Shown one piece after another: positions 5,705 to 6,702 of a stretch of DNA of 21,213 nt. The stretch comes from a virus (lineage: Duplodnaviria > Heunggongvirae > Uroviricota > Caudoviricetes). The stretch is taken from positions 1 through 21,213 of IMG/VR virus record IMGVR_UViG_2534681774_000019, one strand, 5' to 3'. The notes under the pieces were generated by a model that did not search any database, had not been told where the DNA came from, and saw nothing but the letters and a program-made list of their open reading frames with translations. The first letter of the stretch is position 1. The number at the start of each line of letters is the position of its first letter. The position numbers were made by a program, and so were the translations under genes.

Positions 5705-6070
5705 TTATTGCGCTAATTCTTTTTCGGCAGCAGCTTTTGTATACTCACATGCAAAACTCAGAATTTCGCTGCCGAGTGTTTTCGTTTCGTGATTACTGGA
5801 CATATGTAATACCTGTGTTGCATGCAATAAATGATAAACATTTACCGCAAATGAATCAGGCTCCAGACAAATGCCTTCGTAATTATCTTGCTGTGAGGTT
5901 GTTTCTGTCATTGCTCCTGAAGTGCATGCGAGCCTGTTTTTGACAATTCTCTTTTCTCTAATCACTATATCGGCAACATCCATTGCCTTTACAACCTCCG
6001 GGAGAAGTTCCGGGTTTGTATAATCAAAGTCATCAACATGGAGAACAGTTATGTTTTCGAACTTTTTCAT
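5705..6070 (-). CDS. hypothetical protein (121 aa), second gene of the leftward operon
   Basis: ORF track; ATG 6070 preceded by GAGGAAG. Separated from the upstream HTH gene by a 128-bp spacer containing a 7-bp inverted repeat. Confidence 0.55.
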   Translation of the reverse strand: MKKFENITVLHVDDFDYTNPELLPEVVKAMDVADIVIREKRIVKNRLACTSGAMTETTSQQDNYEGICLEPDSFAVNVYHLLHATQVLHMSSNHETKTLGSEILSFACEYTKAAAEKELAQ

Positions 6071-6198
6071 GGCTTCCTCAGCTGACTTATATGTTCTGCT
6101 ATATAGCGAGTCTCAGAAGTGTTTTCATATTGAGACTGTTTCCGCAATGATTGATAAAAATGTTCGCATGTACCTTGAAGGGCGAAGCGGCGATTATG

Positions 6199-6702
6199 TC
6201 ACCATTGGTATTGGTTCTTCCGCAGAAGAGCTTCGCGAGATAAGGGGCAAACTTGTTGAGATGCGTCATGGTGTTGCTGCTCCTCACTTTTTGGTTGCTC
6301 CGGAGGAGTAACCTCACCAGTTAACAGGCACATCGGATCGCAGCCAAGAATATTTGCCAGTGGGATAAGCATACTGATAGTTGGTTCATACTCTCCGCTC
6401 TCCCACTGGATGATAATTTCTTCATCGAGATCGAGCAGCCTGGCGAGTTCGGCGGTTGTTAAGCCGCAGGCTTCGCGTTGGGTGCGAAGACGGTTGTTGA
6501 TTGCAGAATTTTTGTTCTGTAAAAGCATTGCTGACGATAGCTTTCTGGATATGCTATTTGTCATATCCCATGCCAGTCCTGCGCATGACTCTATATCGCT
6601 AGAGAGCGTAGCATCAGGTGTTGCTTTTGCTATTAGTGTAATGAGGCTGCCGAGGTTTTTCAGTTCTTCGAGACAGTCAAGAGTTGTAGCTTTATTGATC
6701 AT
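6199..6702 (-). CDS. XRE-family HTH protein with unknown N-terminal domain, first gene left of the operator
   Basis: ORF track 167 aa. Central/C-terminal helix-turn-helix NNRLRTQREACGLTTAELARLLDLDEEIIIQWESGEYEPTISMLIPLANILG. Occupies the slot held by N in lambda but has no Arg-rich motif. Confidence 0.6.
   Translation of the reverse strand: MINKATTLDCLEELKNLGSLITLIAKATPDATLSSDIESCAGLAWDMTNSISRKLSSAMLLQNKNSAINNRLRTQREACGLTTAELARLLDLDEEIIIQWESGEYEPTISMLIPLANILGCDPMCLLTGEVTPPEQPKSEEQQHHDASQQVCPLSREALLRKNQYQW

Follow-up and report, generated by a model that had tools for sequence, protein, structure and literature searches.

A candidate leftward early regulatory cassette with exchangeable head modules and an overlapping antisense gene in a phiP27-type Escherichia coli prophage

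In lambdoid prophages the region next to the repressor gene cI is a known home of exclusion genes such as rexAB, sieB and nun. A partnership between a regulator and a small protein is known from Bacillus subtilis, where the XRE repressor SinR has a two-helix oligomerisation surface that is common to its small antagonist SinI (PMC3163267). For phages encoding Shiga toxin (Stx), the papers found on the regulatory regions confine their classification to genes on the cro side of cI (PMC8951638). Here we describe two genes to the left of cI, called A and B, and a third gene on the opposite strand, orf86, in a 21,213-nt stretch of Caudoviricetes DNA (IMG/VR record IMGVR_UViG_2534681774_000019, positions 1 to 21,213), which in its whole length is referred to as the window. 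A first-pass annotation, made from the sequence alone, had taken the A/B pair for a candidate accessory or defence module composed of a regulator and an effector, in the position where lambda carries N and rex. We tentatively favour a different reading, with somewhat less than even confidence, namely that A and B, perhaps together with orf86, are an immediate-early regulatory cassette of a phiP27-type prophage, expressed from the leftward promoter PL, and not a defence module.

The immunity region of the window, an E. coli prophage, is of the phiP27 type. A tested stretch of 2.5 kb spanning this region is 100% identical to the chromosome of E. coli O111:H2 strain 12A and 94% identical to the Stx2e phage phiP27 (genes L08–L12), and among 5426 complete E. 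coli genomes 380 contain a match. Gene A (6199–6702, minus strand, 167 aa) has a Shine-Dalgarno (SD)-like GAGGT 8 nt before its ATG, and gene B (5705–6070, minus strand, 121 aa) is preceded by the SD sequence GAGGAA; the two open reading frames (ORFs) lie 128 bp apart, just as first described. Directly upstream of gene A, repeat listing and a pattern search reveal three 16-bp cI-operator-like sites with the consensus TTGATACYTWRGTTAC (6706–6721, 6737–6752 and 6770–6785), which form the left operator OL. Interleaved with these sites is a consensus match to a sigma-70 promoter on the minus strand (6762–6734; TTGCCA, 17 nt, TACCAT), whose position among the operators suggests that it would be active as PL, with a transcript start probably near 6727. 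Gene A is the first gene leftward behind this three-operator OL/PL, as the first-pass annotation had proposed, and occupies the slot of N.

Lambda N and P22 gp24 are likewise the first PL genes directly behind OL, and like N, gene A combines an immunity-linked N-terminal part with a conserved remainder, but the resemblance concerns the layout only. Unlike N, gene A is acidic (isoelectric point (pI) 4.7 (4.68), with 14 R+K against 23 D+E), lacks an Arg-rich motif and has a helix-turn-helix (HTH) fold, and no N-family model from Pfam, PHROGs or NCBIfam matches it. The boxA sequence CGCTCTT occurs four times in the window (2.15 expected) and not at all on the transcribed strands between 5000 and 9000, the copy nearest to the early promoters (4885) being on the wrong strand; boxB had no separate search. 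These results agree with the first reading of the sequence, which had seen neither an Arg-rich N-type protein nor CGCTCTT near either early promoter. Gene A does match HTH_3 (PF01381) at residues 72–123 (6334–6489) with 40.7 bits against a Pfam cut-off of 23, and phrog_4739 with E 3e-98. Its N-terminal part of about 66 aa is matched by no Pfam model, so its description as an XRE/HTH protein with an unrecognised N-terminal domain stands.

An AlphaFold2 (AF2) model of gene A with an overall predicted local distance difference test (pLDDT) score of 71 predicts a head of two helices (residues 1–66, 6505–6702; helices at 7–27 and 31 to about 62, pLDDT about 80–85), the second of which continues into the Cro/CI-type HTH (pLDDT 80–90). 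The HTH is followed by an acidic tail (residues ~130–167, 6199–6333) that is predicted to be disordered (pLDDT below 50) and overlaps orf86 on the opposite strand; this tail is absent from many family members, among them the 138-aa and the two-HTH forms. In a Foldseek search the HTH superposes on the DNA-binding domain of P22 c2 with a root mean square deviation of 0.9 Å over 63 residues (32% identity, target TM-score 0.89–0.91; E 1e-5 by sequence), and the model together with this superposition gives the five-helix lambda-repressor-like DNA-binding fold. Neither the head nor the tail matches a solved structure in this search. Unlike P22 c2 and the lambdoid repressors, gene A has no S24 or other C-terminal oligomerisation domain and carries an N-terminal helical head instead, and unlike immunity repressors, which diverge with their operators, it lies behind PL and its HTH is conserved across heteroimmune phages.

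To describe this conservation in numbers, the homologues of gene A combine a near-invariant first HTH with one or two HTH copies, varied tails and at least eight mutually unalignable heads. Between eight head groups the first HTH shows a synonymous divergence (pS) of 0.386 and a nonsynonymous divergence (pN) of 0.034 (pN/pS 0.09) at 89% nucleotide identity, versus 27% identity, the random level, for the 150 nt of head DNA just upstream. Recent recombination alone was considered as the cause of the HTH conservation and was rejected, because a pS of 0.386 is substantial. Judged from these substitution ratios, the DNA-binding domain is under strong purifying selection and not merely recently exchanged. 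As the HTH is kept across heteroimmune phages, its target should be common to them and hence should not be the immunity operator. The end of the first HTH in the window's regulator reads CDPMCLLTG and runs directly into the tail that follows the second HTH (CDPIWLLTGG...) in protein P0034; this junction suggests recombination between the repeated HTH ends, and the window's gene A looks like a single-HTH deletion derivative of the two-HTH form.

The heads are exchanged in a pattern that is related to the immunity region. The head type of the window (type 1) occurs with the cI class of the window in 76 of 76 loci, and among the first 85 loci head type and cI type corresponded one to one, as if each head recognised its own repressor. 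This strict linkage was rejected on 159 loci, where cI class 3 is found with two head types and head type 0 with two cI classes. With a linkage that is not strict, it suffices as an explanation that the heads lie physically close to the non-homologous immunity segment.

Gene B is made of such heads without a DNA-binding body. An exhaustive profile search divides it into two independent modules, an N-module predicted as a small beta domain (residues 1–50, 5921–6070) and an H-module predicted as a helical hairpin (residues 66–121, 5708–5875). The AF2 model (pLDDT 63) places the hairpin at residues 71–89 and 94–120 (about 85), with less confidence in the N-module (about 60) and a disordered linker. 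The N-module motif MNKFEGITV.H...SDY...ADIVI.G..VVKNR is also the N-terminus of the two-HTH proteins P0166, P0168 and P0171, and the H-module is found either alone (60–70 aa) or as the N-terminus of the XRE arrays P0174, P0177, P0180 and P0184. Between the H-module of gene B and the head of P0092, a common E. coli regulator, the identity is 43% (E 1e-9), and the Salmonella locus L088 has a regulator whose head shares 42% identity over 66 aa with the B of the same locus (E 6e-16). Fusions of the modules to A-type HTH bodies are seen in relatives from both Salmonella and E. coli. Since gene B is composed solely of modules which in other phages are joined to this HTH body, it bears the signature of a regulatory partner and not of an effector.

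The curated libraries give little of this away. Gene B matches phrog_5451 over its full length and phrog_4587 with its C-terminal half. The earlier statement that the 121-aa protein has no recognisable motif is right for such libraries and missed the modular homology to regulator heads. The structure predictions, which had been suggested for both proteins, recovered the HTH fold of A and no solved structure for its head or for B: Foldseek found no PDB hit below E 1 for the gene B model, and neither module of gene B, nor orf86, obtained a significant match when its profile was searched against PDB sequences. The genes L08 and L10 of phiP27 and PHROGs 4739, 5451, 4587 and 6104 are annotated as hypothetical or HTH, and we found no paper on L08, L10 or their family; the pair, first described as being of unknown function, is indeed uncharacterised in every library searched. 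Within gene B an internal Met54 (5911, minus strand) is the RefSeq start of a 68-aa product, which may be an additional product. In locus L088 two further ORFs of 61–64 aa follow directly after the B homologue (5592–5968) and by eye look like helical hairpins of other head types, a hint that the set of head-only proteins is larger.

In order to see how firmly the two genes belong together we counted their co-occurrence in 114 unique regions with regulator A. An ORF encoding the H-module lies downstream of the regulator in all 114. It is a 66-aa H-only gene without orf86 in 45 regions, an N+H gene with intact orf86 in 47 (in 2 more N and H are split by a frameshift), an N+H gene with truncated orf86 in 9 and an N+H gene without orf86 in 11. 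In Stx1 and Stx2 phages the H-only gene begins 5 bp after the regulator stop or overlaps it by 4 bp, from which it follows that A and the B-type ORF would be co-transcribed from PL there. Orthologues of both genes are present in phiP27, L10 being 95.5% identical to gene A over residues 1–132 and L08 95% identical to gene B, but the phiP27-type loci differ from the window in an insertion that truncates orf86 after ~35 codons and in a regulator with a different short tail (138 aa). In these loci (L002 ~4998–5574; L042–L053, L060) the insertion between B and A measures ~400–450 bp, replaces the regulator tail as well, and holds the annotated phiP27 gene L09, and a different insertion stands in place of most of the orf86 region in locus L018.

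With this knowledge a mechanism for the favoured regulatory cassette can be proposed. A and B would be transcribed from PL and repressed by cI, and as they lie behind PL among cI operators they should be silent in the lysogen and made on infection or induction. In gene A the predicted head would most likely mediate oligomerisation or partner contacts, and the HTH would recognise a conserved site other than the immunity operator. The head-only protein B might then make head-to-head contact with regulators of the A family and titrate or modify them, by analogy with the action of SinI on SinR. That B acts through contacts with A-family proteins is the most likely conclusion from the fusion of its modules to A-type bodies elsewhere, the obligate adjacency of the two genes and the hairpin architecture common to both, as the gene A head and the H-module are both predicted by AF2 to be antiparallel two-helix hairpins.

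The comparison with SinR/SinI is one of mechanism and not of membership. As in that system, a Cro/CI-type HTH is joined to a predicted two-helix domain and a neighbouring small gene lacks a DNA-binding domain, and in several relatives the hairpin of the small protein is homologous to that of the regulator (42–43% identity). Unlike in SinR, where the hairpin is C-terminal, it is N-terminal in gene A; neither A nor B has a sequence or Pfam (SinI domain) relationship to SinI or SinR; gene B has an additional beta N-module; and A and B belong to the PL operon of a phage and are separated by an antisense gene. As a kind, XRE regulators with a small partner are known, whereas swappable heads, a head-only partner of two modules and a conserved antisense gene are not described in the material searched.

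Several observations weigh against the regulatory cassette. The window's own head and B hairpin are not detectably related, again unlike SinR and SinI: homology was looked for by hhalign (probability 0.4%) and BLASTP (E 0.61) and not found, so a contact between A and B would here rest on analogy with the relatives instead of homology. One and the same B sequence is found next to regulators that differ in their heads, which argues against a tightly co-evolved interface. A search for a DNA target of gene A found no perfect 6+6 palindrome (spacer 0–10) common to 47 representative loci. RefSeq annotates only the 68-aa C-terminal product of gene B, frameshifted copies exist (P0142, P0147, L036/L037), and the N-module has a pN/pS of 0.79 among close E. 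coli variants with no clear purifying selection. Its low pS (0.045) would fit an extra nucleotide constraint from the orf86 signals embedded in it, and the deep conservation of its motif argues for a real domain. A last point, the missing -35 hexamer of orf86, belongs to this gene and is described with it.

The 128 bp between A and B were first regarded as a spacer with a perfect 7-bp inverted repeat. The distance is correct, but the stretch lies inside a plus-strand gene that was absent from the first-pass annotation, orf86 (6051–6311, 86 aa; phrog_6104, E 1.4e-49). Its 5' end overlaps the start of gene B by 20 nt (divergent, head to head) and its 3' end overlaps 113 nt of the gene A 3' end (convergent, tail to tail). 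The same geometry, with a 3' overlap of ~100–120 nt, is found in the Citrobacter locus L170 and the Salmonella loci L089, L171 and L172, and homologues with 58–97% identity come from E. coli, E. albertii, Citrobacter freundii and three subspecies of Salmonella. In a set of 19 unique intact copies the frame has no stops, a pN/pS of 0.24 and variable columns distributed 33/14/49 over the codon positions. Of the other five frames of the region four always contain stops and the fifth does in some copies; four of the five ratios are at least 0.85, the exception being the mirror antisense frame (0.30), which has 2–4 stops in every copy. The gene is unannotated in RefSeq and in the PhiR49_2 and ASU11 records, and was overlooked in them because it overlaps two genes on the opposite strand.

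The inverted repeat itself (AGTCTCA at 6109–6115 and TGAGACT at 6131–6137) is present as described, but it does not exceed chance, since 14% of dinucleotide shuffles of the 128 bp hold at least one perfect 7-bp inverted repeat and the RNA fold of the region has a z-score of 0.08 against shuffles. It lies in codons 20–29 of orf86, where the arms encode E20-S21-Q22 and I27-E28-T29; E20 is nearly invariant in the family and the other five residues are fully so, which accounts for the persistence of the repeat. In some relatives, including the phiP27 type, single substitutions break it with no compensating change, and Rfam has no match there. It was therefore rejected as an operator or RNA element, and the idea that the HTH protein binds to it, which had been put forward for testing, does not fit a coding sequence that is not conserved as a palindrome.

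Two putative expression signals of orf86 lie inside the N-module coding sequence, a perfect TATAAT (6019–6024, plus strand) and GGAGA (6040–6044), which ends 6 nt before the ATG. In diverged loci the first reads TATAAT, TGTAAT or TGTGAT, and GGAG is kept. This candidate promoter is a -10 match without a -35 hexamer, and the same bases encode gene B, whose constraint cannot be separated out. Being oriented opposite to PL, orf86 is the only element here that could be expressed in the lysogen while PL is shut. As it faces PL transcription, its expression and that of A and B should interfere, with orf86 favoured when PL is shut.

These properties lead to the alternative that survives best, which we regard as unlikely though by no means negligible. 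According to it, orf86 is a moron-like accessory gene with its own promoter, active in the lysogen and directed against PL, and has a role in exclusion, in host modulation or in antisense damping of leaky PL transcripts, and A and B are ordinary early regulators. Besides its orientation and the perfect -10 and SD upstream, the conservation of the protein across genera speaks for this, as do its presence or absence as a unit with the N-module of B, as expected of an inserted cassette, and its loss or truncation in 20 of 69 N+H regions, as is often the case for accessory genes. On the other hand, expression of orf86 is putative, as neither a -35 nor a terminator is found, and the acidic protein has no transmembrane or enzymatic features and no family or structural match in Pfam, NCBIfam or PDB sequences. 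An accessory orf86 is also compatible with the regulatory cassette and not exclusive of it.

Lambda also suggests a different pair of roles, with A as an analogue of CII, the activator of lysogeny establishment, and B as a CIII-like stabiliser that protects A from proteolysis. CIII is a small helical protein of the PL operon, as B would be. The model phrog_4836 ('CII-like regulator') matches gene A (E 3e-39, HTH region) and gene B (E 9e-4), phage ASU11 labels its homologue 'putative CII repressor', only Rha-type regulators and no cII are annotated to the right of cro, and the disordered tail of gene A could serve as a degradation signal. However, such labels are annotations and not tests, no Pfam Phage_CII match to A was found, and gene A lies to the left of cI and not to the right of cro. 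Moreover, the tail is missing from many family members and overlaps orf86, and an H-module fused to an HTH body points to action in cis and not to a protease inhibitor. We consider this assignment rather improbable.

For a more far-reaching proposal we see only a small chance. It joins two claims, that the three overlapping genes form a new type of switch in which convergent transcription sets orf86 against A and B, orf86 being made in the lysogen and A/B after derepression, and that B is an anti-regulator acting in trans. In this proposal B would act on the near-identical HTH regulators with H-type heads that are present in heteroimmune prophages or superinfecting phages. The B hairpin of the window resembles such foreign heads more than its resident counterpart, to which it has no detectable relation; it would make B an anti-regulator of the phage-against-phage kind, and the diversification of heads would be a means of escape.

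The defence module first proposed, in which A senses or regulates and B is an effector that blocks an incoming phage or aborts infection as a means of superinfection exclusion, has a slighter chance still. Its attraction lies in the cI-adjacent location and in three uncharacterised proteins, and the HTH does hit HTH components in PADLOC-DB v2. These hits are generic (RmrA, HTH_VI and CapH; best E 2e-8; residues 62–142 of gene A), B has no match, and orf86 gives only Cas11a at E 0.03, which is not beyond noise, so the recommended search of PADLOC and Pfam did not turn up a defence system. Gene B is acidic (pI 5.0), shows no enzymatic, membrane or toxin-like features and is built of regulator head modules, and the pair, with B translationally coupled to A in relatives, lies downstream of PL and the cI operators and is expected to be off in a lysogen. 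The slot of rex, a position co-transcribed with cI in the lysogen, is empty, as the cI stop (6806) is 20 bp from OL, whose outermost site ends at 6785, with no ORF between them; the proposed N/rex position thus holds for N and not for rex.

That mosaic recombination left B behind as a decaying head of a former regulator allele, with no function of its own, is very unlikely. The family is highly mosaic, and the N-module ratio and the frameshifted and truncated copies would be expected of a relic. Against this, the H-module is under purifying selection (pN/pS 0.32 in frame against 0.92–0.97 out of frame among close variants) and is retained as an ORF in every region counted, gene B has its own SD, and from E. 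coli across to Salmonella and Citrobacter it retains ~45–60% identity and an intact N-module motif. Least probable of all is a type II toxin-antitoxin system with A as the XRE antitoxin and B or orf86 as the toxin, for although XRE antitoxins are common, the genes are small and adjacent and the HTH weakly matches HipB-, MqsA- and spr1629-type antitoxin models, these scores are far below the cut-offs (19–25 bits against 62–335) and concern the HTH only, B and orf86 are acidic and match no toxin-family model, B is intact beside truncated copies of A (L035, L038), truncation of orf86 is frequent in loci that retain A and B, and no autoregulated promoter was seen.

On the other side of the operator-proximal pair the immunity region has the expected parts. 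The cI-type repressor (6806–7462, minus strand; HTH_3 and Peptidase_S24, LexA-like) has 218 aa from the RefSeq start, and a cro-like gene (7574–7801, plus strand; phrog_4749) lies to the right of OR, where three operator-like sites resembling TTGATACYTWRGTTAC (7485–7500, 7509–7524 and 7543–7558) are located between the two genes. A pattern search for the operator consensus gave three exact matches at OL and two or three at 7486–7522. To the right of the cro-like gene two Rha/Ant-type regulators are annotated on the plus strand (7798–8505 and 8914–9468), and no gene there bears the label cII. Rha-family genes are also found at this position in the Eru6, Eru7 and Eru9 phages of the Eru scheme, which classifies Stx-phage regulatory regions (PMC8951638).

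Within 8658–8859 (plus strand) Rfam detects the Hfq-binding RNA isrK (8671–8747, 61.6 bits) and the C4 antisense RNA (8772–8859, 82.4 bits), as well as a sub-threshold c4 target a1b1 (8658–8710). They fall inside the listed ORF 8614–9468, all 855 nt of which RefSeq gives as one 'Rha family' protein; with RNA matches in it, the true protein start is probably a Met near 8914, and the stretch looks like an RNA-controlled module of the P1/P7 immI type upstream of the second Rha/Ant-like gene. Further down the early-left operon a 62-aa ORF (5322–5510, minus strand; phrog_340) matches two anti-repressor PHROGs in their C-terminal part only (phrog_4792 positions 199–240 and phrog_2379 positions 127–175) and may be a further small protein of the 'domain-only' kind. 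The prophage integrase lies directly beside mlrA in the identical O111:H2 chromosome (locus L001 3015–4301 equals the left end of the window), with yehW, yehX and yehY as neighbours, so that the prophage has its integration site next to mlrA.

Not only phiP27 but also many Stx1- and Stx2-converting prophages, from E. coli O145 and O111 among others, carry the cassette at the position of N, and its relatives also occur in prophages of Salmonella and Citrobacter. Two scans of species-representative genomes (one genome per species) found no copy of the regulator or of orf86; as it is common in E. coli assemblies all the same, the cassette is strain-variable prophage cargo. With the cassette in this position, the first PL product of these phages is a predicted DNA-binding protein and not an antiterminator. 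Furthermore, orf86 is a conserved protein-coding gene that was missed because of its overlap with two genes on the opposite strand, and the locus is a case of mosaicism at the level of domains, in which the left boundary of an immunity-linked non-homologous segment falls on a domain junction inside a gene. Gene A itself would have a strongly conserved target and is always accompanied by a head-only partner, and learning what it controls would bear on how these prophages commit to induction, and hence on toxin release.

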